46,029 bases of DNA, taken from the UHGV virus genome UHGV-0229940, one strand, 5' to 3'. Source of the stretch: a virus. Below the pieces are notes generated by a model. That model saw only the letters and a program-made list of their open reading frames with translations. It made no database searches and was not told the origin of the DNA. Each line of letters begins with the position of its first letter. Position 1 is the stretch's first letter. The translations under genes and the position numbers were made by a program. Shown here one piece after another: positions 8,717 through 46,002 of this stretch.

Positions 8717-10132
8717 ATGAGCGAGTTATTTAAACATGCGCACCTTCATGCAGGTCGAACTGAAAATGGTGCTGTAAACCATACTTCATCAATGTCTGCT
8801 CTGGTAGACTTCTACAAAGCCGCTGGCTCAAGCCGTAGCAATGTAGAAATCTTACCAGACCTGTTCTACAAAGCTTTGCGTGAGGATGTTGATGTTGCAG
8901 TTCGTATTTTACTGCATATGCGAGATGTACGAGAAGGTATGGGTGAGCGTAAAGCTTTCCGAACTGTTTTACTTCAAGCACTTGAAGACAAGGTTTTAGA
9001 GCCTACGCAGGTTCTTCGCATTATGGATAAGATTGCAGAACTTGGTCGTTTTGATGACTTCAAAATCTTCGTAGGTACTCGTTTCGAGACAGATGCCTTC
9101 AAACACCTAGAAGCAGCATTACTAGAACCTGCAACAGCAGGTTTGGCGGCTAAGTGGTTACCACGAGTCAAACCACGTCATAAGCAGTTTGTAAAACGTT
9201 TCTGCAAGTTTGCCAACTTGAGTGAGAAAGAGTACCGCACACTGTTGTCTGCACTATCTGATACAGTTGAGCAAAAAATCTCTGCTAATGAGTTTGGTAA
9301 GATTGACTACAGTAAGATTCCTTCACTTGCTGCTGCACGTTACCAAAAACTGTTTAACCGCAAAGATGGAGAACGCTACAAAGCTTACATCGAGTCCTTA
9401 TCAAAGGGTGAGACTAAGATTAATGCTGGTGCTGTTTACCCATACGATGTAATTAAATCTGTTAAGCATGGTAATGCAGATGTTGCTAATGAGCAGTGGA
9501 AAGCACTACCAAACTGGATGGCAGATGGTGAAAACATCTTGTGTATGTCTGATGTTTCAAGCTCAATGTCTTGGGTGAATTTTGGTTCAATTACTGCTCT
9601 TGATATTGGTGTTTCACTTGCATTGTATGTAGCAGAACGCAATACAGGTTGCTTCAAGGATGAGTTAATGGTTTATTCAACAAACCCTCACTTCATCGAA
9701 CTGAGTGGTGATTTACGAAACCGTCATCGTCAGGTGATGCGACATGTTGAATATGGCTCAACTAACTTACAAGCAGCTTTTGACCGCATTCTTGAGGTAG
9801 GTAAGAGAAACAACTTGACTCAGAAAGACATGCCAAGTAAGCTTATCATCTTCTCAGATATGGAGTTCAATCAGGTTGATGGAGCTAACGGTCGTACAAA
9901 CTTTGAAGCAATTCAGAGTAAGTACAAAAAAGCTGGGTACGAAATGCCTCAACTGGTATTCTGGTACTTAGCAAACCGTAATGGTACTTGCGAAGTGTCT
10001 GTTAAGGATAACGGTGTAGCAATGGTATCTGGTTTTTCTCCAGCTACTTTAAAAGCTCTGCTTGGTGGTGAGAAGTTTGACCCAATCAGTGTAATGCTCA
10101 AAGCAGTAATGATTGACCGTTACATCTGGTAA
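8717..10132 (+). CDS. von Willebrand factor A (vWA) domain protein with MIDAS motif; Ro60/TROVE-like two-part architecture is a hypothesis
   Basis: 471 aa; DxSxS MIDAS motif in ILCMSDVSSSMSW about residue 275; about 270 aa N-terminal region upstream of the vWA fold. Confidence 0.8.
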   Translation: MSELFKHAHLHAGRTENGAVNHTSSMSALVDFYKAAGSSRSNVEILPDLFYKALREDVDVAVRILLHMRDVREGMGERKAFRTVLLQALEDKVLEPTQVLRIMDKIAELGRFDDFKIFVGTRFETDAFKHLEAALLEPATAGLAAKWLPRVKPRHKQFVKRFCKFANLSEKEYRTLLSALSDTVEQKISANEFGKIDYSKIPSLAAARYQKLFNRKDGERYKAYIESLSKGETKINAGAVYPYDVIKSVKHGNADVANEQWKALPNWMADGENILCMSDVSSSMSWVNFGSITALDIGVSLALYVAERNTGCFKDELMVYSTNPHFIELSGDLRNRHRQVMRHVEYGSTNLQAAFDRILEVGKRNNLTQKDMPSKLIIFSDMEFNQVDGANGRTNFEAIQSKYKKAGYEMPQLVFWYLANRNGTCEVSVKDNGVAMVSGFSPATLKALLGGEKFDPISVMLKAVMIDRYIW

Positions 10133-10297: not shown

Positions 10298-10374
10298 CTC
10301 TGTTTAGCTCAGCTTGGTAGAGCGTTCCGTTTGGGGCGGTAAGGCCGGAGGTTCAAGTCCTCCAACAGAGACCA
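10298..10374 (+). tRNA. tRNA-Pro (anticodon TGG)
   Basis: Manual cloverleaf: acceptor CTCTGTT/AACAGAG, T-arm GGAGG-TTCAAGT-CCTCC, anticodon loop TTTGGGG, CCA encoded. Confidence 0.7.
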
Positions 10375-10381
10375 AATTAAT

Positions 10382-10456
10382 GTTCCAGTAGACAAAATGG
10401 TAAAGTCACCACTCTTTCAAAGTGGATATCTGAGGGTTCAAATCCCTTCTGGAACG
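10382..10456 (+). tRNA. tRNA-Glu (anticodon TTC)
   Basis: Acceptor GTTCCAG/CTGGAAC, anticodon stem CCACT/AGTGG, loop CTTTCAA. Confidence 0.7.
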
Positions 10457-10466
10457 CAAGTTTTGA

Positions 10467-10540
10467 CAGAAGACCAATTACAGCAAACTTAATCTACTCA
10501 TCTGACACGAAATCGGACAAAGAAGATATTTGGTCTGGTC
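10467..10540 (+). ncRNA. inter-tRNA structured spacer element, copy 1 (5' box CAGAAGACC-NNN-TACAGCAA, 3' box GGTCTGG; AGACCAAT pairs with ATTTGGTCT)
   Basis: Conserved boxes with a complementary flank whose sequence differs between copies while pairing is kept. Confidence 0.5.
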
Positions 10541-10549
10541 ATTGAGAAT

Positions 10550-10626
10550 TGCGGGTATAGAGAAAGGGCGTCTCACATGTCTCATTAGCATGGTATCGGC
10601 AGGTTCGACTCCTGCACCCGCCTCCA
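10550..10626 (+). tRNA. tRNA-Met (anticodon CAT); position 1:72 is a T:C mismatch
   Basis: T-arm GCAGG-TTCGACT-CCTGC, acceptor 3' ACCCGCC, anticodon loop CTCATTA, CCA encoded. Confidence 0.6.
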
Positions 10627-10632
10627 ATTTTG

Positions 10633-10694
10633 CAGAAGACCGTATTCAGCAACAAAATACTTTTTGCGGATAAAAGAAAAAACACGGTCTGGCA
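10633..10694 (+). ncRNA. inter-tRNA structured spacer element, copy 2 (AGACCGT pairs with ACGGTCT)
   Basis: Same CAGAAGACC ... CAGCAA 5' box and GGTCTGG 3' box as copy 1, with compensatory change in the pairing flank. Confidence 0.5.
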
Positions 10695-10703
10695 ATGTAT
10701 TAA

Positions 10704-10780
10704 GGTTAGGAAGCACATAAGGTATGTGCGGTCGCCTGTTAAGCGAATGGCACAGGGTTCGAATCCCTGACTAACCGCCA
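10704..10780 (+). tRNA. tRNA-Asn (anticodon GTT)
   Basis: T-arm CAGGG-TTCGAAT-CCCTG, anticodon loop CTGTTAA, CCA encoded. Confidence 0.7.
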
Positions 10781-10788
10781 AATTAAAT

Positions 10789-10876
10789 GTGTCGTTATCC
10801 CGTAGATGGTAGCGGTGGGGACTGTAAATCCCTTGTCATTGAGACTCGGTAGGTTCGACTCCTACACGGCACACCA
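10789..10876 (+). tRNA. tRNA-Tyr (anticodon GTA), long variable arm
   Basis: 88 nt; anticodon stem GGGGA/TCCCT, loop CTGTAAA; T-arm GTAGG-TTCGACT-CCTAC. Confidence 0.7.
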
Positions 10877-10881
10877 ATAAA

Positions 10882-10958
10882 GGCTATGTAGTTTAACTGG
10901 AGAAAATACTCCCCTGTCACGGGAGATGATGTGAGTTCAAGTCTCATCGTAGCCGCCA
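10882..10958 (+). tRNA. tRNA-Asp (anticodon GTC)
   Basis: Anticodon stem CTCCC/GGGAG, loop CTGTCAC; acceptor GGCTATG/CGTAGCC. Confidence 0.7.
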
Positions 10959-11019
10959 ATTTTGAGAGGGCTATTTAGCCCCTCCCTTAAAGAGTTCTTA
11001 CGAGTATTCTTTAAAGGAG

Positions 11020-11095
11020 CAGAAGACCAAATACAGCAAGAATGTATGAAATTTCAAGCCAATTTAATTTTGAAAATTTAAAACTTGGTCTGGCT
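11020..11095 (+). ncRNA. inter-tRNA structured spacer element, copy 3 (AGACCAA pairs with TTGGTCT)
   Basis: Conserved 5' and 3' boxes with covarying complementary flank. Confidence 0.5.
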
Positions 11096-11106
11096 CAACA
11101 AATTTA

Positions 11107-11238
11107 CAGAAGACCGTTTACAGCAAAACTTAAACAATCTATTTCTCCGGTAAAGAAAAGGCGAAGGTTCGATTCCTTCACTCGGCAGATGTCGAGTTGG
11201 TGTAATGGTAGCACTTAAGATGATAAACAACGGTCTGG
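11107..11238 (+). ncRNA. inter-tRNA structured spacer element, copy 4 (AGACCGTT pairs with AACGGTCT), enclosing a permuted tRNA-like segment
   Basis: Same boxes as copies 1-3; internal segment 11139-11214 has tRNA anticodon-arm, T-arm and acceptor-3' features followed by acceptor-5' and D-arm features. Confidence 0.45.
11139..11214 (+). pseudogene. permuted or fragmentary tRNA-like sequence (3' two-thirds precedes a complementary 5' acceptor and D-arm)
   Basis: Anticodon-like stem TTTCT/AGAAA, T-arm GAAGG-TTCGATT-CCTTC, acceptor-3' ACTCGGC, then GTCGAGT (pairs with ACTCGGC) and D-arm GTGTAATGGTAGCAC. Confidence 0.35.
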
Positions 11239-11241
11239 TAA

Positions 11242-11257
11242 TTATCTTTGTAGATAA
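11242..11257. repeat. palindromic hairpin TTATCT-TTGT-AGATAA (left copy)
   Basis: Exact reverse complement of the copy at 11366-11381. Confidence 0.6.
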
Positions 11258-11365
11258 GTTATTAAGCTTACCTGTGAGTATGCGACCACAAAGGGTGAAA
11301 GGGTAAATTCTAGATTTAAACCCAAAAAGGCACATCGCTACAGACCTTAAGCAAGTCTGGGTAGC

Positions 11366-11381
11366 TTATCTACAAAGATAA
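11366..11381. repeat. palindromic hairpin TTATCT-ACAA-AGATAA (right copy, inverted relative to 11242-11257)
   Basis: The two copies bracket a 108 bp segment. Confidence 0.6.
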
Positions 11382-11387
11382 TTTAAT

Positions 11388-11463
11388 GGAAGTGTAGCAG
11401 AATGGTGATGCGGCAGACTTTTAATCTGACAGGCGATGGGTTCGAATCCCTCCACTTCTACCA
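11388..11463 (+). tRNA. tRNA-Lys (anticodon TTT)
   Basis: Anticodon stem CAGA/TCTG, loop CTTTTAA; acceptor GGAAGTG/CACTTCT; CCA encoded. Confidence 0.6.
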
Positions 11464-11467
11464 ATAT

Positions 11468-11544
11468 GGTTCAGTCGCAGATAAGGTAATGCAAGGGTCT
11501 CATAAGCCCTATGAATGTGGGTTCGATTCCCATCTGAACCTCCA
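11468..11544 (+). tRNA. tRNA with CAT anticodon (Met, initiator or Ile-lysidine type; GGG/CCC run in anticodon stem)
   Basis: Perfect acceptor GGTTCAG/CTGAACC, anticodon loop CTCATAA, T-arm GTGGG-TTCGATT-CCCAT. Confidence 0.7.
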
Positions 11545-11545
11545 A

Positions 11546-11621
11546 GCTGGTATAGTTAAGAAGGTTATAACACTCCCCTGATAAGGGAACATCGGTGGTT
11601 CGATTCCACCTACCAGTACCA
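11546..11621 (+). tRNA. tRNA-Ile (anticodon GAT)
   Basis: Anticodon loop CTGATAA; T-arm GGTGG-TTCGATT-CCACC. Confidence 0.65.
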
Positions 11622-11636
11622 ATTTCAATAAAGTTG

Positions 11637-11665
11637 TTGACATTGAGATGTGACTACTTTATAGT
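11637..11665 (+). promoter_or_regulatory. strong sigma70-like promoter inside the tRNA array (TTGACA, 17 nt spacer, TATAGT)
   Basis: -35 at 11637-11642, -10 at 11660-11665. Confidence 0.6.
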
Positions 11666-11868
11666 AACCTTAGTTTTCGTTGCGTAGCGTCTATTTTGCA
11701 AATTTAAAATAAATGCAAACGACAATGTTTTTCTGGCAGTAGCTTGATAGGCTAAACACCAGTGAGGTCTTCCAATCCCTCATCAAAGAATTTGGCGTAC
11801 TAGCCCACGGTATGATTAATAAGGTGGGCATCTTTAAGGGCTTTCTAAGAGAGTCTTTAAAGATTAAT
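11666..11868 (+). ncRNA. about 200 nt promoter-proximal non-tRNA spacer; candidate small stable RNA
   Basis: No ORF and no tRNA fold found; contains stem GCCCAC/GTGGGC (about 11789-11814); downstream of the promoter at 11637. Confidence 0.3.
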
Positions 11869-11945
11869 GCACCCTTAGTTCAATTGGATAGAGCAACGGT
11901 CTTCTAAATCGTTAGTTACAGGTTCGAATCCTGTAGGGTGTGCCA
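11869..11945 (+). tRNA. tRNA-Arg (anticodon TCT)
   Basis: D-arm GTTC-AATTGGATA-GAGC, anticodon stem ACGGT/ATCGT, loop CTTCTAA. Confidence 0.7.
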
Positions 11946-12087
11946 ATTAGTTAGCAGATTACTTAGACGACCTAAGCGGGTCTTCCTGTAGGGAGGTGGT
12001 CTGTATCTCATGTTTTCCAGAACATGTAAATAATCTGAGAAGGGGCTTTACAGTGTTGAGATAATACGGTAAGCTTCGAATTATAAT

Positions 12088-12170
12088 ATGGGACGATGTT
12101 AAGACTCTAAGGCATGAGCAACGGCCTCCAAAACCGTTTCAAAGGGGTTCAACTCCTCCGTCCCATGCCA
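12088..12170 (+). tRNA. tRNA-Trp-like (anticodon CCA) with about 7 extra nucleotides between acceptor and D-arm
   Basis: Perfect acceptor ATGGGAC/GTCCCAT, anticodon stem ACGG/CCGT, loop CTCCAAA; total about 80 nt without CCA. Confidence 0.5.
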
Positions 12171-12183
12171 AAGTCTTATTAGG

Positions 12184-12271
12184 GGTAGGTAGCGGCTAAT
12201 GGTAGCCAAACTGTCTTGAAAACAGTTGCCACTGTAGAGATACGGTGAGGGTTCGACTCCTTTACTTACCG
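12184..12271 (+). tRNA. tRNA-Ser (anticodon TGA), long variable arm
   Basis: Anticodon stem ACTGT/ACAGT, loop CTTGAAA; 88 nt. Confidence 0.7.
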
Positions 12272-12429
12272 CCTAATAAGGTTTAAAGCCAAGCTTCATT
12301 CGGATGTTGCTTTGGTATCCCTCGTGTATTGTCGTACAAGCACAGTAAAGCACCTAGTAGGTGTCACGGAGAAGAGATAATATCAAGCTCTCCAAAGGTT
12401 CTAGTCACCGGATTAAACAAGACTATGCA

Positions 12430-12451
12430 AAGACCTTTTTAGGTCTTTTTA
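12430..12451 (+). terminator. terminator-like hairpin inside the tRNA array (AAGACC-TTTTTA-GGTCTT then T-run)
   Basis: 6 bp perfect stem followed by TTTTT. Confidence 0.4.
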
Positions 12452-12529
12452 GAGGGCTTCTAAGGTTATTACAGCTTGTTGTGGAACCTTGTTGCTTAGG
12501 TTCTTAGAAGTTCTCTAAAAAGATTTAAT

Positions 12530-12607
12530 GGGAGATTGACGGTAATTGGTAAACCTACCATCCTTAGAAGTTGGTGTTTGAGGGTTCGAATCCCTTGTCT
12601 CCTACCA
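12530..12607 (+). tRNA. tRNA with anticodon TAG (Leu decoding) but short variable arm
   Basis: Acceptor GGGAGAT/GTCTCCT, T-arm GAGGG-TTCGAAT-CCCTT, anticodon loop CTTAGAA; 78 nt. Confidence 0.5.
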
Positions 12608-12614
12608 AATTAAT

Positions 12615-12690
12615 GCAGGTGTAGCAAAATGGTTATGCGGCTGACTCTTAATCAGTAAGACGATGGGTTCAATTCCCTCCACCTGTACCA
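12615..12690 (+). tRNA. tRNA-Lys (anticodon CTT)
   Basis: Anticodon stem GCTGA/TCAGT, loop CTCTTAA; paralogous to the Lys-TTT gene. Confidence 0.6.
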
Positions 12691-12696
12691 GACATT

Positions 12697-12772
12697 GGGG
12701 ATGTAGTTTACATGGTTAAAACATAAGTTTTGCAAACTTAAGTACAGGGTTCAATTCCCTGCTTCTCCACCA
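12697..12772 (+). tRNA. tRNA-Ala (anticodon TGC) with G3:U70 identity pair
   Basis: Anticodon stem TAAGT/ACTTA, loop TTTGCAA; G at position 3 opposite T at position 70. Confidence 0.7.
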
Positions 12773-12778
12773 ATTAGT

Positions 12779-12853
12779 GCATCCATAGTTTAAACGGGAA
12801 AATTACAGTCTTCCAAACTGAGGTTGAGGGTTCGATTCCCTCTGGATGCTCCA
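12779..12853 (+). tRNA. tRNA-Gly (anticodon TCC)
   Basis: Perfect acceptor GCATCCA/TGGATGC, anticodon loop CTTCCAA. Confidence 0.7.
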
Positions 12854-12860
12854 AATTAAT

Positions 12861-12937
12861 GCTGCTTTCGTATAATTGGCTATTACACATCCCTTGTAAG
12901 GATGGAAATGCGGGTTCGAGTCCTGTGAGCAGCACCA
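12861..12937 (+). tRNA. tRNA-Thr (anticodon TGT)
   Basis: Anticodon stem CATCC/GGATG, loop CTTGTAA. Confidence 0.7.
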
Positions 12938-13032
12938 ATTCAGAGGTCAAGTGAAAGACCGCTGGTGTCAACTGAAGACCGTAACAAATTCCACGGAGTT
13001 GAGTTAGCGGCACAACTTCAGACCTCTTTCAC

Positions 13033-13107
13033 ACTCGCTTAGTTTATATGGTAAAACATCACCCTTACAAGATGAAGAAAAAGGTTCAAGTCCTTTAGTG
13101 AGTACCA
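13033..13107 (+). tRNA. tRNA-Val (anticodon TAC)
   Basis: T-arm AAAGG-TTCAAGT-CCTTT, anticodon loop CTTACAA. Confidence 0.6.
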
Positions 13108-13108
13108 T

Positions 13109-13186
13109 GTTCCAGTATCCCAATTGGCAGAGGATGCAAGCTCAAACCTTGTATTAGTGACGGTTCGAATCCGTCTTGGAACACCA
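13109..13186 (+). tRNA. tRNA with anticodon CAA (Leu decoding) but short variable arm
   Basis: Acceptor GTTCCAG/TTGGAAC, T-arm GACGG-TTCGAAT-CCGTC, anticodon loop CTCAAAC. Confidence 0.5.
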
Positions 13187-13191
13187 ATTTT

Positions 13192-13267
13192 GCAGGATTA
13201 GTTCAAATGGATAGAGCAACAGTCTACGAAGCTGTTAATAGGGGTTCGAATCCCTTATCCTGCGCCA
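13192..13267 (+). tRNA. tRNA-Arg (anticodon ACG)
   Basis: Perfect acceptor GCAGGAT/ATCCTGC, anticodon loop CTACGAA. Confidence 0.7.
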
Positions 13268-13284
13268 GATAAAAAGGTGATACT

Positions 13285-13527
13285 ATGCAAACATTAACAG
13301 TAGTTGAACATGAAAACTGTGAGAATATTGAGTTTGTCAGGGTCATTGGTGTTGAACACCACATTTTCTTAAAAGTAGGGTACTTATGTGACCCCGCTAG
13401 AGTAGAAAGATTTATACGTGATTGTTTTGGTGGTAGACAGCTAAAGAGTGTTATTTTTGAGACAGTTTTACCAGAAGGTTTAGAAACGAATAATAACATT
13501 TATCTCCTTACAAGGATTAGACGATGA
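13285..13527 (+). CDS. hypothetical protein encoded inside the tRNA array
   Basis: 80 aa ORF with SD AAAGGTGA upstream. Confidence 0.5.
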   Translation: MQTLTVVEHENCENIEFVRVIGVEHHIFLKVGYLCDPARVERFIRDCFGGRQLKSVIFETVLPEGLETNNNIYLLTRIRR

Positions 13528-14081
13528 GATATTTAAAATATGCTTCATGGATTTTCCTAGCTTTGCTAGAACCATTAGCAGCAACCTTAGCAGTTATCTT
13601 AGCACCTTTCGTAGTTCCATTTTACAGTGAGAAGAAAGGCCACTTACCTTTCGGATTTAGATGGATGGAGACATATGACAACCCAATTGATGGTGACGAA
13701 GGTCATATCGAACGATGGGCTAAGATTAGAAAGATTGGTAAGCTGGGTGTCTACATGCAGAGAGTCGGATGGCTCTGGAGAAACAAAGCTTATAACTTCT
13801 CTTACCATGTATTAGGAAGAGATGTAAAAGATGTTACTAAGTGGAAAGGTAATATCAACGTAAGTTCTGACCCTGAAGATAATCAGACAGGTTATCTCCT
13901 AATGTGGAACAGTAATGCTTGGGGATTATTCGCTTTTATCCCATCAATTAAAGTCTTTGGTAAACAGTTTTACTGGAGAATTTATATTGGATGGAAACTA
14001 AAAAGTGTTGTCCCAGAAGAAAGAGCATTCTCAAGGGAAAGAGTTATGTTGGCATTCTTTATTCATCCACTGAGAAAGTAA
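13524..14081 (+). CDS. hypothetical membrane-anchored protein encoded inside the tRNA array
   Basis: 185 aa; N-terminal hydrophobic segment ASWIFLALLEPLAATLAVILAPFVVPF; 4 nt overlap with the upstream ORF. Confidence 0.6.
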   Translation: MRYLKYASWIFLALLEPLAATLAVILAPFVVPFYSEKKGHLPFGFRWMETYDNPIDGDEGHIERWAKIRKIGKLGVYMQRVGWLWRNKAYNFSYHVLGRDVKDVTKWKGNINVSSDPEDNQTGYLLMWNSNAWGLFAFIPSIKVFGKQFYWRIYIGWKLKSVVPEERAFSRERVMLAFFIHPLRK

Positions 14082-14089
14082 AGATTTAA

Positions 14090-14165
14090 AGGGGATTAGT
14101 TTACAAGGTTAAAACCTCGGTCTTTGAAATCGAAGAAGTTGGTTCAATTCCAACATCCCCCGCCA
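14090..14165 (+). tRNA. tRNA-Gln (anticodon TTG), weak 1:72 pair
   Basis: D-stem GTTT/AAAC, anticodon stem TCGGT/ATCGA, loop CTTTGAA. Confidence 0.65.
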
Positions 14166-14167
14166 AT

Positions 14168-14246
14168 GCTCCATTACTCCAATTGGCAGAGAGGCCAGAC
14201 TTAAAATCTGTGTTATGTATCGGTTCGAATCCGATATGGAGTACCA
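14168..14246 (+). tRNA. tRNA with anticodon TAA (Leu decoding) but short variable arm
   Basis: Acceptor GCTCCAT/ATGGAGT, T-arm ATCGG-TTCGAAT-CCGAT, anticodon loop CTTAAAA. Confidence 0.5.
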
Positions 14247-14251
14247 AATTT

Positions 14252-14327
14252 AGCGGTATAGCATAACTGGCAATGCAACAGTCTCTGAAGCTGTCCTATT
14301 AAGGTTCAAATCCTTATGCCGCTGCCA
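14252..14327 (+). tRNA. tRNA-Gln (anticodon CTG)
   Basis: Anticodon stem ACAGT/GCTGT, loop CTCTGAA. Confidence 0.6.
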
Positions 14328-14358
14328 CTTCTAAGGGTTCTTACGAGAGTCCTTAAAT

Positions 14359-14434
14359 GTGGCCTTATCATAAATGGTAATGACCCATGCTGTGAACATG
14401 GTCTATACGGGTTCAAATCCCGTAGGTCACCCCA
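14359..14434 (+). tRNA. tRNA-His (anticodon GTG)
   Basis: Anticodon stem CCATG/CATGG, loop CTGTGAA; T-arm ACGGG-TTCAAAT-CCCGT. Confidence 0.7.
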
Positions 14435-14439
14435 ATTTA

Positions 14440-14516
14440 TAGTCCAAGTAGCTTATATGGTTAAAGCGCGTGTCTGAAAAACATGAGAAGAGGGTTCAAA
14501 TCCCACTGGACTACCA
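14440..14516 (+). tRNA. tRNA-Phe (anticodon GAA)
   Basis: Perfect acceptor TAGTCCA/TGGACTA, anticodon loop CTGAAAA. Confidence 0.65.
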
Positions 14517-14532
14517 ATTTCAAAGGTGCTTA

Positions 14533-15267
14533 ATGAAAGAGATGACAGAACAAGGTAAGGAGATTTTTAATCTCTTAAAAACCGGTAAAGGGTTTTCTAA
14601 CCCACTTATTACTGGTGCAGCAGTTCTCGGTGGAACCGTAGCTGCTTCTACATCACTTGTAAGCTCTATTAGTTCTGTAACAGACCCTACAATGCAGGAG
14701 AAACTTGTTGCTGCTGGACTTACAACAGTCCTTCTAAACAGCTTTACAACAAGCCTTACAAGCACTACAGCAACTACTAAGACCCTGACAGACTACGGTC
14801 AAAAATCTATTGATGAGTTTTCATCACGTATGCAGGTAGCAAAGGGATATTCCAATGTTATGGGTGCAGCAGGAGAACAAGTTGGTTGTACACCGTTCAG
14901 TGGTATTATGGGTGTTGCTACAGAATATGGTCAAAAAGCTATTGATACGATTAACAGTACACTAGAGAGTGTTAACGATGTATTAAGTGACTTACAAGAC
15001 GCTATTGACAAGGGTCTTGATACTGTTTCTGATTTAGCTAACCAAGCTGTCAGTAAGATTAATGAAGGTATCTCAAAGATTACAGCTTATGCAGATGAAG
15101 TTGTGCAGATGATTGAAGAAGAAGCTGCCCTTATTGCAGAGTACCTTAAAACGAATATCAATGGGTTCTTAGCAGGTATCTTACCAGACTGGTTTGATGA
15201 TGCCTGTAAAACTGGTGTAATTGACACTATTGCAACACCAGAAATGAAGAACGCATTACAGAAATAA
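14533..15267 (+). CDS. hypothetical Ser/Thr-rich protein encoded inside the tRNA array
   Basis: Six-frame ORF 14470-15267 would overlap two tRNAs, so start is placed at Met 14533 (MKEMTEQ ...); 244 aa. Confidence 0.6.
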   Translation: MKEMTEQGKEIFNLLKTGKGFSNPLITGAAVLGGTVAASTSLVSSISSVTDPTMQEKLVAAGLTTVLLNSFTTSLTSTTATTKTLTDYGQKSIDEFSSRMQVAKGYSNVMGAAGEQVGCTPFSGIMGVATEYGQKAIDTINSTLESVNDVLSDLQDAIDKGLDTVSDLANQAVSKINEGISKITAYADEVVQMIEEEAALIAEYLKTNINGFLAGILPDWFDDACKTGVIDTIATPEMKNALQK

Positions 15268-15361
15268 TGGAAGATTAACCCTAAAAGGTAAGGGAGCAGT
15301 TTGCTAAACTGCCAGTAGCTGAGAAATCGGTGTACCAGTTCAAGTCTGGTATCTTCCTCCA
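15268..15361 (+). tRNA. tRNA-Ser (anticodon GCT), long variable arm
   Basis: Perfect acceptor GGAAGAT/ATCTTCC, anticodon stem GCAGT/ACTGC, loop TTGCTAA; 94 nt. Confidence 0.7.
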
Positions 15362-15365
15362 ATTT

Positions 15366-15441
15366 GAATCCGTGACAGAAATGGCTATGTGCCTGTCTGC
15401 AAAACAGGTTTATAAGGGTTCGAGTCCCTTCGGATTCTCCA
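15366..15441 (+). tRNA. tRNA-Cys (anticodon GCA)
   Basis: Perfect acceptor GAATCCG/CGGATTC, anticodon stem CCTGT/ACAGG, loop CTGCAAA. Confidence 0.7.
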
Positions 15442-42402: not shown

Positions 42403-42577
42403 TTAATGAGTCTATGTTTGTAGCCCTAACCTTTTCACGTTCATCGTTAAGATAATCGTCAAGAGCCTTTTCAATCTGTGAATCATCTTGACAGATAACT
42501 GTAAAGACTGTAAAGCCGTCTGTATCGTCAATTATCTTACCATAACCGCTTCTGGGATGTAACTTTTTAAGAGCCAT
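42365..42577 (-). CDS. hypothetical small protein with basic C-terminal tail, translationally coupled to the HTH gene
   Basis: 70 aa ORF; C-terminus RKRKKKDE. Confidence 0.5.
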   Translation of the reverse strand: MALKKLHPRSGYGKIIDDTDGFTVFTVICQDDSQIEKALDDYLNDEREKVRATNIDSLIDTSRKRKKKDE

Positions 42578-42578
42578 A

Positions 42579-42962
42579 TCAAATACCTGTGCAGCTTCTG
42601 TTTTCTAAGAAATACTCAACACCATATATAGCTTTTTGCATCAAATCTTCTTTAAACTGGATACGGTGGTTGAGCATCGCCTGTACATCAATATCATCAT
42701 GGTGTTTCTCTTTAATGTTTGCAGATTGCAGGAAATACTCTGCAAGAACACGATATTGATAGTCAGTTACCTTATCAGTCATCTCTGTTAAAGATTCTTC
42801 AGAGATTGGTTTAAGTAGCTCACCTTTAGCTAGAGCAACACCTTTTACAATATGGCAAGTGTCTTCTGGAACACCTGATAAGTCCACATTTGGAAGTTCT
42901 GTTGCATTGACTGGTAAATTTATTGCCATAACCATTGCAGCAGCTAATAAAATCTTTTTCAT
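42579..42962 (-). CDS. hypothetical secreted protein with N-terminal signal peptide
   Basis: 127 aa; MKKILLAAAMVMAINLPVNA signal-peptide-like N-terminus. Confidence 0.65.
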   Translation of the reverse strand: MKKILLAAAMVMAINLPVNATELPNVDLSGVPEDTCHIVKGVALAKGELLKPISEESLTEMTDKVTDYQYRVLAEYFLQSANIKEKHHDDIDVQAMLNHRIQFKEDLMQKAIYGVEYFLENRSCTGI

Positions 42963-43010
42963 AATGACCTCAAAGTTATATTAAATTTTGTATTACATTT
43001 AGTATAAAAA

Positions 43011-43051
43011 TAAGCTATAACACCTGACTTGTCAACAGATTTTATAGCTTA
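43011..43051. promoter_or_regulatory. 10 bp perfect inverted repeat TAAGCTATAA/TTATAGCTTA flanking a TTGACA box (candidate promoter/operator for the leftward gene 42579-42962)
   Basis: Reverse complement of 43027-43032 is TTGACA; the inverted repeat arms are 43011-43020 and 43042-43051. Confidence 0.35.
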
Positions 43052-43070
43052 TTTGGCAGATTTTTTATAA

Positions 43071-43470
43071 GGCTACTGCCATCCTTCCATACTTTACCGA
43101 ACATCACCCTACTGAACCCGACCCTACCTCACCCGACCCAACCGAACCGTACCGAGCACAGCCTTATTAAAAGACCCTGTTTAAAGACCTTTTAAAAAGG
43201 CAAGTCTCATTTTAATGTAGCTGAGACTAACTACCCATAACTTACTTCACTAAACCAGACCTTACTTCACTAAACCAAGCATTACTTCACCAAACTATAC
43301 CTTGCATCCCACACCACACCTTACCAAACATCACTTAAAAACCCTTTTAAAAAGCTCTTAAGTAATGTAATCGGATTTTAATGTAGCTCCGATTAACTAC
43401 CCATACCAAATCAGACCTTACCGAACCCTACCTCACAACACACCACCATACCGGACAAAACCACACCTCA
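43071..43470. repeat. repeat family array A: units containing a conserved-loop hairpin, ACTACCCATA box, pyrimidine-rich pentamer repeats and CACTTAAAAACCC / TTAAAAGACCCT boxes
   Basis: Hairpins at 43203-43228 (AGTCTCA/TGAGACT) and 43369-43394 (AATCGGA/TCCGATT) share the loop TTTTAATGTAGC; units are homologous to region 44652-44945. Confidence 0.75.
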
Positions 43471-43487
43471 TTAAAAGACCCTCTTAA

Positions 43488-43520
43488 AGACCTTTTAAAA
43501 AGGAGCCTCCGAAGAGGCTG
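43488..43520 (-). terminator. Rho-independent terminator after gene 43531-43971 (stem AGCCTC/GAGGCT, UUCG loop on minus strand)
   Basis: 6 bp stem at 43504-43519 with CGAA loop on plus strand, preceded on plus strand by TTTTAAAAAGG. Confidence 0.55.
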
Positions 43521-43530
43521 CCTAGTCAAC

Positions 43531-43971
43531 TTAGAAAGGTTTTCTACGTTGCTTGTTAATGTTAGCTTTCATAGCAGCTAAGTGGTTTTGCTGTTCAATC
43601 AGTCGCGAACGTTCTTGATGGCTAAGTGCCATAGTGTTCACATTCTCAATTGCTTGAGTGGCTTGCTTTAAAGCACGACCAATTTTACCAGACATTTTGC
43701 GTTTTGCAATAGTTGCTTGATGCTTAGGTTCAACCACACGATAACCAACACCCATTGAAGCAACCAGATAAATCTTCTCTTCTTTAAGAAGCTTCTCAAT
43801 AAACTTCTCAAGTCGGTTTAGACGTGTAAGTGCATAAGCCTTCATTTCATCTTCGTACTTAACAATGTCACCTTGATAAGTTGGCTTCACAATACCTAAG
43901 AAGGTATCCATCTCAGAGTGTGATACAGTGTCACCGTAACTAAACTTTGCTGCTAATGCTTTTGTATTCAT
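43531..43971 (-). CDS. hypothetical protein
   Basis: 146 aa ORF; second gene of a two-gene unit bracketed by repeat arrays. Confidence 0.6.
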   Translation of the reverse strand: MNTKALAAKFSYGDTVSHSEMDTFLGIVKPTYQGDIVKYEDEMKAYALTRLNRLEKFIEKLLKEEKIYLVASMGVGYRVVEPKHQATIAKRKMSGKIGRALKQATQAIENVNTMALSHQERSRLIEQQNHLAAMKANINKQRRKPF

Positions 43972-43973
43972 AA

Positions 43974-44579
<606 letters not shown>

Positions 44580-44651
44580 TTAGTTGATTGTTAAGTTGTT
44601 TGTAAAGAACCCTCAACAGAAGACTCTTTAGAAACTTGGTAGATTTTTAAC

Positions 44652-44945
44652 GTGGCTACTACCATCCACCCACACTTTACCATACCTCACCGCGCCTTAC
44701 CCGACAGGGCTGCACCTTGCCTTGCCAAACATCACTTAAAAACCCTATGAGATAACCTATCGAGTATAATTTAAAGGCTCTTAAGTGATGCAATCGAATT
44801 TTAATGTAGCTCCGATTAACTACCCATACCCTACTTTACCTTGCCGTACTGTACTTTACCCGACCATACCGGACAATACTTAACCCGACCTCGCCCTACC
44901 GGACATCACTTAAAAACCCTCTTAGAAGACTCTTAAGTGATGCTG
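44652..44945. repeat. repeat family array B, homologous to array A
   Basis: Contains GCTACTACCATCC unit start, CACTTAAAAACCCT boxes, hairpin 44792-44817 with the same loop TTTTAATGTAGC, ACTACCCATACC box. Confidence 0.75.
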
Positions 44946-44972
44946 GTGAGTACCCGTTGGTTTATGCTGCTC

Positions 44973-45000
44973 AGTATACTCACCAAATTTTCTATGTCAA
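44973..45000 (-). promoter_or_regulatory. sigma70-like leftward promoter (TTGACA, 16 nt spacer, TATACT) within an inverted repeat
   Basis: Reverse complement of 44995-45000 is TTGACA and of 44973-44978 is TATACT; overlaps inverted repeat GGTGAGTA/TACTCACC. Confidence 0.55.
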
Positions 45001-45006
45001 CAACTT

Positions 45007-46002
45007 TTATTCATAATCTCGTATAACTAACCCAACAGGGAACTGTAAAGACCCCTTACGAGTCATCTTCTGGAACTGAACCGTTAAAGGTTTCCCGATA
45101 AATTCTTCAGGATGCTCAGCAAGATACTGTTTCTTCTCGTGTGTAGTTTTCCATGAAACATCTACAAAGACGTTAGGAAGAGTCTCTACAACGAACTTAC
45201 CATGACCACGTTTATCAGTCTTTACACCAGTCACTTTAAACTCTTCAGTGTGCATCTTCTTGTGCTTAATCAAGAAGTATGAACGGTGACCACACTCATA
45301 GAAAGATTCTTCAGAGATTGAACGGTACATTGCACCTTCAAACTTAGCTTCAACCCACTTATCATGAGCTTCATCAAACTCTTCCCAAGAATTTACACGG
45401 ATAGTCTGTACAGGAACAACTCTACAGGTATCCCCAAGCTCAACAATAGGTGAGTTATCAATAACTTCACGACGCTCAGGCCAAGATTTTGAATTGTCAC
45501 AGATATCATACCAGTAGAATTTAAGAAGGTGACGGTCTGGATTGTCAGCATTCTTAATCATAGATACAATATCTTCTAAGTCCCAACCATGAGCATAAAT
45601 CTCTCCGTCAAAGTCTTCAACTTGCGGATGTAGTTTAAGCAACAAAAGCAAATCTGGGATTAGTTCTGTTGGAACGTTGTAAACAGTATTCTCACGAGAA
45701 TAAGCTGTGAAACTGACTGAATCAGCATCTCTTGAAATTCTACAACGGACACCATCAAGTTTTGGTTGAGCATCAGCAGGGAACTTCAGATACTTTGCAT
45801 GACTAACCTTTGCAGCATCATGAGCAAGCTGTACACCTACCTTCTCAGTATTCTGTGCAGACTCTTTTGTGTAAGCATAACCTTTGCGGTCAACTTGCTT
45901 TTTATACTTAGCAGCAACTTCAAAGAGGGCTTGCTGTTCAGCGTTACGCTCATTCTTTTTACCGATGTTTTTAGGTTCTGCTGTATACTCTTCAAACATC
46001 AT
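45007..46002 (-). CDS. ATP-dependent DNA ligase
   Basis: 331 aa; nucleotidyltransferase motif I KLDGVR (adenylation lysine) about residue 82. Confidence 0.75.
   Translation of the reverse strand: MMFEEYTAEPKNIGKKNERNAEQQALFEVAAKYKKQVDRKGYAYTKESAQNTEKVGVQLAHDAAKVSHAKYLKFPADAQPKLDGVRCRISRDADSVSFTAYSRENTVYNVPTELIPDLLLLLKLHPQVEDFDGEIYAHGWDLEDIVSMIKNADNPDRHLLKFYWYDICDNSKSWPERREVIDNSPIVELGDTCRVVPVQTIRVNSWEEFDEAHDKWVEAKFEGAMYRSISEESFYECGHRSYFLIKHKKMHTEEFKVTGVKTDKRGHGKFVVETLPNVFVDVSWKTTHEKKQYLAEHPEEFIGKPLTVQFQKMTRKGSLQFPVGLVIRDYE

Follow-up and report, generated by a model that had tools for sequence, protein, structure and literature searches.

The 570-bp gap at positions 42963-43530 of the window, the 46,029-nucleotide stretch of viral DNA analysed here, is read as the downstream three-guide vrRNA array of a type II VIPR (Viral Interference Programmable Repeat) locus, with a probability of about 0.93. 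It is a real and functional feature, and strongly non-random. The system, an RNA-guided DNA silencer that phages turn against rival mobile elements, was described in 2026, so the element itself is not novel; what interest remains lies in the head hairpins, the orphan or guide-only cases, and the guide-target pairs specific to the window phage. Neither of the two VIPR preprints covers the head hairpins between guides, the Vipr-less orphan guide of Felix O1 or the guide repertoire of this phage.

The phage to which the window belongs is a Felix O1-like myovirus (Felixounavirus), and 231 phage records match the region 42500-44000 at 80-99% identity. The gap is bounded by the ORFs 43531-43971 and 42579-42962, the surrounding genes lie on the minus strand throughout, and the three tandem units inside the gap are likewise in minus-strand sense. 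A second array, of two units, occupies 44577-45006. Along the minus strand the locus runs from a promoter through two vrRNAs, vipr and vap1 to three vrRNAs, with all guides flanking the vipr-vap genes on one strand, two upstream and three downstream (Table 1). Period-5 GGT tracts, always on the gene strand, are confined to both gaps flanking 43531-44561 in the window and in the whole genome of SME50, its closest relative, and no further array is found in either. The GC skew reaches down to -0.85 on the plus strand, i.e. the sense strand is G-rich.

Table 1 Features of the VIPR locus in the window, listed in the direction of the minus strand.
Feature	Position	Strand	Description
Sigma-70-type promoter (TTGACA-16-TATACT), upstream of the upstream vrRNA array	44973-45000	-	11/12 consensus positions
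Head, beta type, before B1	44904-44942	-	18 bp, -17.5 kcal/mol, z -6.3; antisense -8.6
vrRNA B1	44792-44903	-	16 NNGGY repeats + tail 44792-44825
Head, beta type with 22-nt insert, before B2	44730-44791	-	-21.9 kcal/mol, z -6.0
vrRNA B2	44637-44729	-	12 repeats + terminal tail 44637-44671
vipr, 195-aa RAMP protein	43974-44561	-	191/195 identical to SUSP1 Vipr
vap1, accessory gene, 146 aa	43531-43971	-	145/146 identical to the SUSP1 ORF directly downstream of vipr
Intrinsic-terminator-like hairpin + T-run after vap1	43496-43519	-	from sequence; overlaps the first head
Head, alpha type, before A1	43466-43505	-	-11.2 kcal/mol, z -1.45; weakest of the five
vrRNA A1	43369-43467	-	13 repeats + tail 43369-43402, which includes the hairpin 43369-43394
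Head, beta type, before A2	43329-43368	-	-16.6 kcal/mol, z -8.1; antisense -3.1
vrRNA A2	43203-43328	-	~19 repeats + tail 43203-43236, which includes the hairpin 43203-43228
Head, alpha type, before A3	43161-43201	-	-14.0 kcal/mol, z -3.7
vrRNA A3	43054-43163	-	15 repeats + terminal tail 43054-43088
19-bp A/T-rich hairpin carrying the sigma-70 promoter (TTGACA-17-TATTTT) of gene 42579-42962	43007-43054	-	

Felix O1, Moogle, SUSP1, Michonne and ESh22 all have the upstream promoter, conserved behind their ligase gene. At the opposite end of the locus, the A/T-rich hairpin at 43007-43054 holds the -35 element in its loop and the -10 element in its 3' arm, and is conserved in Felix O1, Moogle and SUSP1. 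Since it directly follows the last guide, this hairpin could, as RNA, double as the terminator of the array. Motifs resembling those of the vrRNA tail and head, TGGCAGTAGC and AGGGCTTTCTAAGAGAGTCTTTAAAG, also occur at 11720-11862 on the plus strand, just upstream of a tRNA-Arg gene, where a pentamer tract is absent. Also on the plus strand, a 471-aa ORF with DUF2828 and DUF7788 (8717-10132) lies directly upstream of the 26-gene tRNA cluster (10298-15441); its Felix O1 homologue carries the RefSeq annotation 'RNA-binding protein'.

The identification was reached through the protein encoded between the arrays. Searched for (GGTNN)6GGT, IMG/VR yields more than 120 contigs. Simple microsatellites aside, variable-NN arrays with tandem units and lineage-specific linkers are present in many unrelated viral contigs, and the G-rich strand of these arrays coincides with that of the adjacent genes. 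In an all-against-all BLASTP of ORFs from 51 loci and the window, a Vipr homologue stands beside the NNGGT array in 34 of the 51 loci of unrelated viral contigs. This family, ~180-210 aa in length and without a Pfam domain, numbers over 500 members in public data. The window ORF 43974-44576 belongs to it, and the profile of the family matches one solved structure, 36pp, 'SUSP1 Vipr protein', with an E value of 3e-81. Several of the IMG/VR contigs (L037, L041, L042, L049, L052, L058, L062, L068, L086, L127 and L128) carry NNGGT arrays with other linkers, such as AAGGCTAATG, AAGGAATGGTTTAATGAATTTAATT or only GGCA, which displaces the register by one, and some arrays lie directly upstream of start codons. 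The arrays with other linkers are probably other VIPR types and the 'staggered' arrays of the VIPR paper.

In the SUSP1 locus, non-coding regions lie on either side of vipr, the gene of a minimal RAMP protein, and vap, and infection by SUSP1 yields four vrRNAs of ~100 nt, one from upstream and three from downstream (10.64898/2026.04.26.720920, 10.64898/2026.04.26.720927). These RNAs contain 9-16 YNNGG repeats with conserved GGY and hypervariable NN, end in an invariable pseudoknot tail and co-purify with Vipr; the experiments comprise sRNA-seq, co-purification, GFP repression and cryo-EM (10.64898/2026.04.26.720920, 10.64898/2026.04.26.720927). In the cryo-EM structure one Vipr protomer sits on each repeat, H17, D177, R138, W178, R179 and their neighbours hold the GGY bases, the NN bases are offered for pairing, and the 3' end is capped by the pseudoknot (10.64898/2026.04.26.720920, 10.64898/2026.04.26.720927).

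The Vipr of the window starts at the ATG giving MKLLNIK, 15 nt inside the mechanical ORF call, which begins at the GTG at 44576. It aligns with PDB 36pp_D, 'SUSP1 Vipr protein', at 98% identity (E 6e-128), and its AF2 model (pLDDT 92.1) finds Csm3/Cas7 subunits as the best PDB folds, with Foldseek E values of 8e-6 and weaker. The residues that contact GGY or the target are kept: H17, K33, E71, M72, R138, C173, D177, W178 and R179. The T175 of the structure paper reads V175 in both the SUSP1 and the window sequences. The name vap1 for the SUSP1 ORF follows how the paper describes the locus; no labelled sequence underlies it. Among the neighbouring proteins, Pfam, PHROGs and PADLOC gave no informative match for the two cassette genes, and no cas1 or cas2 is present among the neighbouring genes. 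Rfam finds no family in the window at the gathering threshold and nothing relevant in 42900-45100 at E values up to 10, preQ1-I included. The element is unmentioned in the Felix O1 genome paper, and general literature searches returned nothing.

On the minus strand each unit is built as a head hairpin, then a pentamer body, then a tail. The predicted guides are about 93-126 nt long, with 12-19 pentamers of fixed GGY and free NN. The body statistics draw on 74 unique units, taken from the window and from Felix-like loci. Each unit has 8-19 pentamers, whose profile is N N G(0.76) G(0.95) T(0.88); a single 5-nt phase accounts for 86% of the GT dinucleotides, compared with 39% after shuffling, and the head-to-tail length is constant modulo 5 within a head/tail type. 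Because the NN positions vary freely among phages, the array DNA is only 60-80% identical, compared with ~90% for the flanking genes. The conserved module is the tail plus the head, ~75 nt, and the variable parts are the pentamer tracts. Fourier analysis of the whole gap gives no clear period of 5, since the units are mutually out of phase; analysed per unit, the period is apparent. The pentamer register is unbroken at 5 nt in the units other than A2. In A2 it is broken by 1 nt, AGT often stands where GGT would be expected, and a 20-nt unit occurs three times (43242-43308). Judged from this pattern, A2 is possibly decayed, and it resembles a guide that is expanding by slippage or decaying.

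An earlier note on this DNA, made from the letters alone, had described the gap as a repeat family with at least two full units. It drew no connection between the array and the two adjacent genes, in which the explanation is found. The modular family is borne out, and the count is amended to three, the third unit carrying a variant tail at 43054-43088. The (T/C)ACCN pentamers that it listed are true repeats read from the wrong strand, being the complement of the functional minus-strand NNGGY. Its two hairpins, AGTCTCA/TGAGACT at 43203-43228 and AATCGGA/TCCGATT at 43369-43394, are found exactly there, both with the identical 12-nt loop TTTTAATGTAGC followed by AACTACCCATA, and a third copy lies at 44792-44817 in the next intergenic gap; the exact loop with its flanking motif occurs at only these three places in the 46-kb window. 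In the sense of the guides, the internal tail is GGGTAGTT, a 7-bp hairpin with the loop GCTACATTAAAA, and the last unit of each array ends in a variant of the same build. The GUAG just upstream of the hairpin pairs with the CUAC in the loop to form a pseudoknot, and this participation of the loop accounts for its identity in differing stems.

The terminal tails are formed by the helices AAGG/CCUU and UGGCAG/CUGCCA, or GUGG/CCAC and UGGUAG/CUACCA; that of A3 (43054-43088, minus strand) reads G AAGG A TGGCAG TAG CCTT ATAAAAAAT CTGCCA. Pairing occupies 96.3% of cells in the terminal tails, with four pairs showing compensatory change across both helices, and 98.9% in the internal tails, with three compensatory pairs in the hairpin and a nearly invariant pseudoknot stem; these counts come from a handful of sequence classes and few independent events, and the slid controls are 24-51% paired. 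Between the two stem classes three of the seven pairs change on both sides, again in few events, and one stem pair on the minus strand appears as G-C, G.U and A-U. The stem covariation is real, few as the events are, and the proposal in the earlier note that the hairpin is under selection as a structure is supported; it makes up the 3' tail hairpin and pseudoknot of each guide RNA. The pseudoknot of a near-identical SUSP1 vrRNA has been resolved by cryo-EM (10.64898/2026.04.26.720927).

The heads that precede the guides are hairpins of 17-18 bp in two types, alpha and beta, whose stems differ and whose loops are alike. Several G.U pairs in their stems make them stable only in the sense RNA. 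The A/T-rich boxes, which the earlier note had placed correctly (five matches to the AAAGACCTTTTAAAAAGG box against 0.15 expected), belong to these structures: the CACTTAAAAACCC and TTAAAAGACCCT boxes are the arms of the 17-18 bp hairpins, formed in sense RNA alone. The head hairpins between guides would separate or mature the individual vrRNAs. Processing of vrRNAs goes unmentioned in both VIPR preprints (10.64898/2026.04.26.720920, 10.64898/2026.04.26.720927). A tentative extension, more doubtful than probable, is that the heads are dedicated maturation or termination signals (e.g. RNase III sites) that set the 5' ends of vrRNAs, and that guide-only elements use Vipr in trans from a co-infecting phage; the two kinds of guide-only element observed are the Felix O1 orphan vrRNA and the vrRNAs of E. 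coli satellites.

The action of the locus is modelled on SUSP1, given the protein identity of 98-99% and the identical RNA architecture. One Vipr protomer per repeat would sequester the GGY bases, and the resulting filament would present the NN dinucleotides. These would pair with dsDNA targets of the form NNxNNx, with one base skipped per repeat, and the resulting R-loop triplex would block transcription. For VIPR in general, the targets are dsDNA read as NNxNNx (the '1-nt skip rule'), transcription is repressed and a PAM is unnecessary; 18 of 20 SUSP1-clade guides with identifiable targets aim at a phage satellite in E. coli genomes (10.64898/2026.04.26.720920, 10.64898/2026.04.26.720927).

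The same prey emerges for the window phage. BLAST of the locus against complete E. coli genomes matched a single 67-nt tail-like segment, in 66 chromosomes, within a ~12-kb island (L151:13608-25405, with further copies in L152-L157) whose genes encode a serine recombinase, tape-measure and baseplate proteins and an HNH endonuclease. It is the satellite of the VIPR paper; KTa008 and DEC5B are examples of E. coli that bear it. The five guides were scored by the 1-nt-skip rule against seven satellite variants, with the papers' threshold of at least 80% NN match. A3 matches the satellite recombinase gene at 28/30 NN positions (93%), and its first 13 of 13 consecutive NN are perfect (26 specified bases; target site TGGTCTACATCTTGACGTGACAGACGGTCAAGAGATTCT). 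B1 matches a conserved hypothetical gene at 28/32 (87.5%; site L154:9041-9087), at the same position in all seven variants (25-28/32), and A1 matches a recombinase-family gene in one satellite variant at 21/26 (81%), just above the threshold. None of 200 shuffled-order controls reaches these scores, the maxima being 22 (A3), 25 (B1) and 20 (A1). For all three guides the skipped base coincides with codon position 3 (wobble), as the paper reports for natural targets. A2 and B2 give nothing above background in the seven satellite loci, and within the window the guides have no self-target, the best self-match being 59-71%.

Of 5426 E. coli genomes, 297 contain the A3 target region, in 32 of them as the perfectly matching variant, and 284 contain the B1 target gene; an idealised B1 target used as a BLAST query brought up no satellite variant that surpasses the seven fetched. 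The central 10 NN of B2 are exact in four metagenomic viral contigs of one family in IMG/VR (L158-L161), where the whole guide matches at 20-21/24 and the codon phase is not wobble; ~0.1-0.2 chance matches are expected, and this one may be due to chance. Taken as sequence matches, these results indicate that the guides of the window phage likely aim at an E. coli-resident phage satellite, with the role of repressing a parasite of the phage, and A3, A1 and B1 would repress satellite genes during infection. Some satellite copies carry a vrRNA of their own with a compensatory tail variant, a GUCG/CGAC stem, and no vipr homologue occurs near these vrRNAs within the fetched loci, which extend 9-15 kb on either side.

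Among relatives, the full locus is present in Moogle and SUSP1. Michonne and ESh22, which are more distant, have the same promoter without the array and without the cassette. Felix O1 has no vipr or vap anywhere in its genome by tblastn and keeps one unit (NC_005282 57632-57913), in which 11 partly degenerate repeats separate a beta head from a terminal tail; it lies between the same promoter and downstream gene. This unit could be the leftover of a deletion between two arrays, or a guide that uses Vipr in trans. Against E. coli satellites the orphan guide has no match, the best being 16/22.

The minus-strand reading of the earlier note holds, and its interpretation of the units as GGT-rich micro-ORFs with an SD-like TTAAGAG does not, the ATG being often absent and no peptide conserved. 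According to that interpretation the units would be cis-acting leaders or small peptides, ORFs of 12-14 codons with their own ribosome-binding sites, and an ATG does follow AAGAG-like motifs in places, e.g. at 43471-43469 and 43331-43329. The ATG of alpha units is, however, often ATA in relatives, with TAATAAGG replacing TAATGAGG, and the motifs concerned are the arms of RNA hairpins. The NN positions are hypervariable and lengths change in multiples of 5 nt, not 3, so neither a peptide nor a frame is conserved, and coding of this kind is barely credible. A strong promoter with a G-rich non-template strand might instead mark an element that acts as DNA, either a replication origin prone to R-loops or G-quadruplexes or a hotspot of recombination, in agreement with the GC skew and with the position of the arrays around a two-gene cassette missing in Felix O1, as expected from inter-array recombination. 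Such an element leaves unexplained why GGY is fixed and NN free, why the G.U hairpins form in the sense strand only, why arrays accompany RAMP genes in unrelated phages and why the satellite matches are codon-phased; it is very improbable as the explanation, and inter-array recombination may occur as a side effect.

It is also very improbable, if a little less remote, that the locus is VIPR by descent alone, with a downstream array that is decaying and non-functional in the window phage. The degenerate, targetless A2 fits this picture, as do the orphan unit that Felix O1 retains after losing vipr and vap and the terminator-like hairpin (43504-43519), which stands between vap1 and the downstream array and also counts against the VIPR-array explanation itself. 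So do the irregularity of A2, the want of a convincing target for A2 and B2, and the narrow, single-variant match of A1. Decay is opposed by the intact Vipr and Vap1, nearly identical to the experimentally active SUSP1 proteins, by the 26-nt perfect gapped match that A3 keeps to a satellite gene found in E. coli genomes, and by SUSP1, which expresses all three guides of its downstream array of the same layout. The type II VIPR array is the preferred reading. Several other candidates were discarded. Sigma-70 or phage-specific promoters in the A/T-rich boxes were rejected on the confinement of the motif to the arrays, and a Shine-Dalgarno-like sponge on the presence of AGGT or GGGT in only about half of the pentamers. 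A search for a CRISPR array finds no near-identical direct repeats of 23-47 nt with spacers, and no cas1/cas2 among the neighbouring genes. Also dropped were boxA/nut-like antitermination sites, an RfaH ops-like GGTAG element, antisense Rut sites, tRNA CCA-end pairing, TRAP-like rings and ToxI mimicry.

VIPR is a newly described way for RNA to read DNA, with a non-contiguous guide, a single effector of ~20 kDa and no PAM, and has been proposed as the ancestor of CRISPR effectors. Its recognition here makes interpretable an unannotated 570-bp repeat region of many Felix O1-like phages, which are used in typing and biocontrol. It also yields a concrete list of the prey of the phage, the recombinase and a conserved gene of a satellite in ~5% of complete E. 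coli genomes, and supplies natural guide-target pairs that are directly testable. No principle is added beyond the 2026 reports.

Compared with the VIPR locus of SUSP1, the locus of the window has the same position, flanked by the ligase gene and the ORF87 homologue, with Vipr 98% and Vap1 99% identical, YNNGG repeats with a pseudoknot tail, upstream guides together with three downstream, and an E. coli phage satellite as the predicted prey. It differs in having two upstream guides (B1 and B2) where SUSP1 has one, in its NN repertoire, with array DNA only about 72% identical, and in the irregular A2, whose ~19 repeats and frame break lie beyond the range of 9-16 given in the paper. Class 1 CRISPR effectors (Csm3, Cas7) share with VIPR a RAMP protein (RRM core, G-loop, thumb) that polymerises on the guide RNA with bases flipped out periodically, and a variable guide portion capped by a conserved structured handle. 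VIPR, in contrast, is phage-encoded and has no Cas1/Cas2, spacer acquisition or repeat-spacer array; its guide is non-contiguous, 2 of every 5 nt pairing with a 1-nt target skip, and its target is dsDNA, which is silenced rather than cut.

Two other RNA-based systems resemble the array in part. Like the TRAP target, with its 11 (G/U)AG triplets separated by spacers of 2-3 nt, the vrRNA offers a fixed triplet about every 5 nt of single-stranded RNA, bound by one subunit per repeat; no TRAP homologue is present. The triplet of VIPR is GGY, the protein forms a helical RAMP filament rather than the 11-mer ring of TRAP, and the spacers, irrelevant in TRAP, are informative. ToxI and pseudo-ToxI of type III toxin-antitoxin systems are, like the vrRNA units, tandem small pseudoknotted RNAs, phage-encoded or mimicked, that are used in conflict between genetic elements. 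The ToxI units are 36 nt long, identical to one another and bound by the ToxN RNase, whereas the vrRNA units measure ~100-165 nt, contain hypervariable guide positions and have a RAMP protein as their partner.
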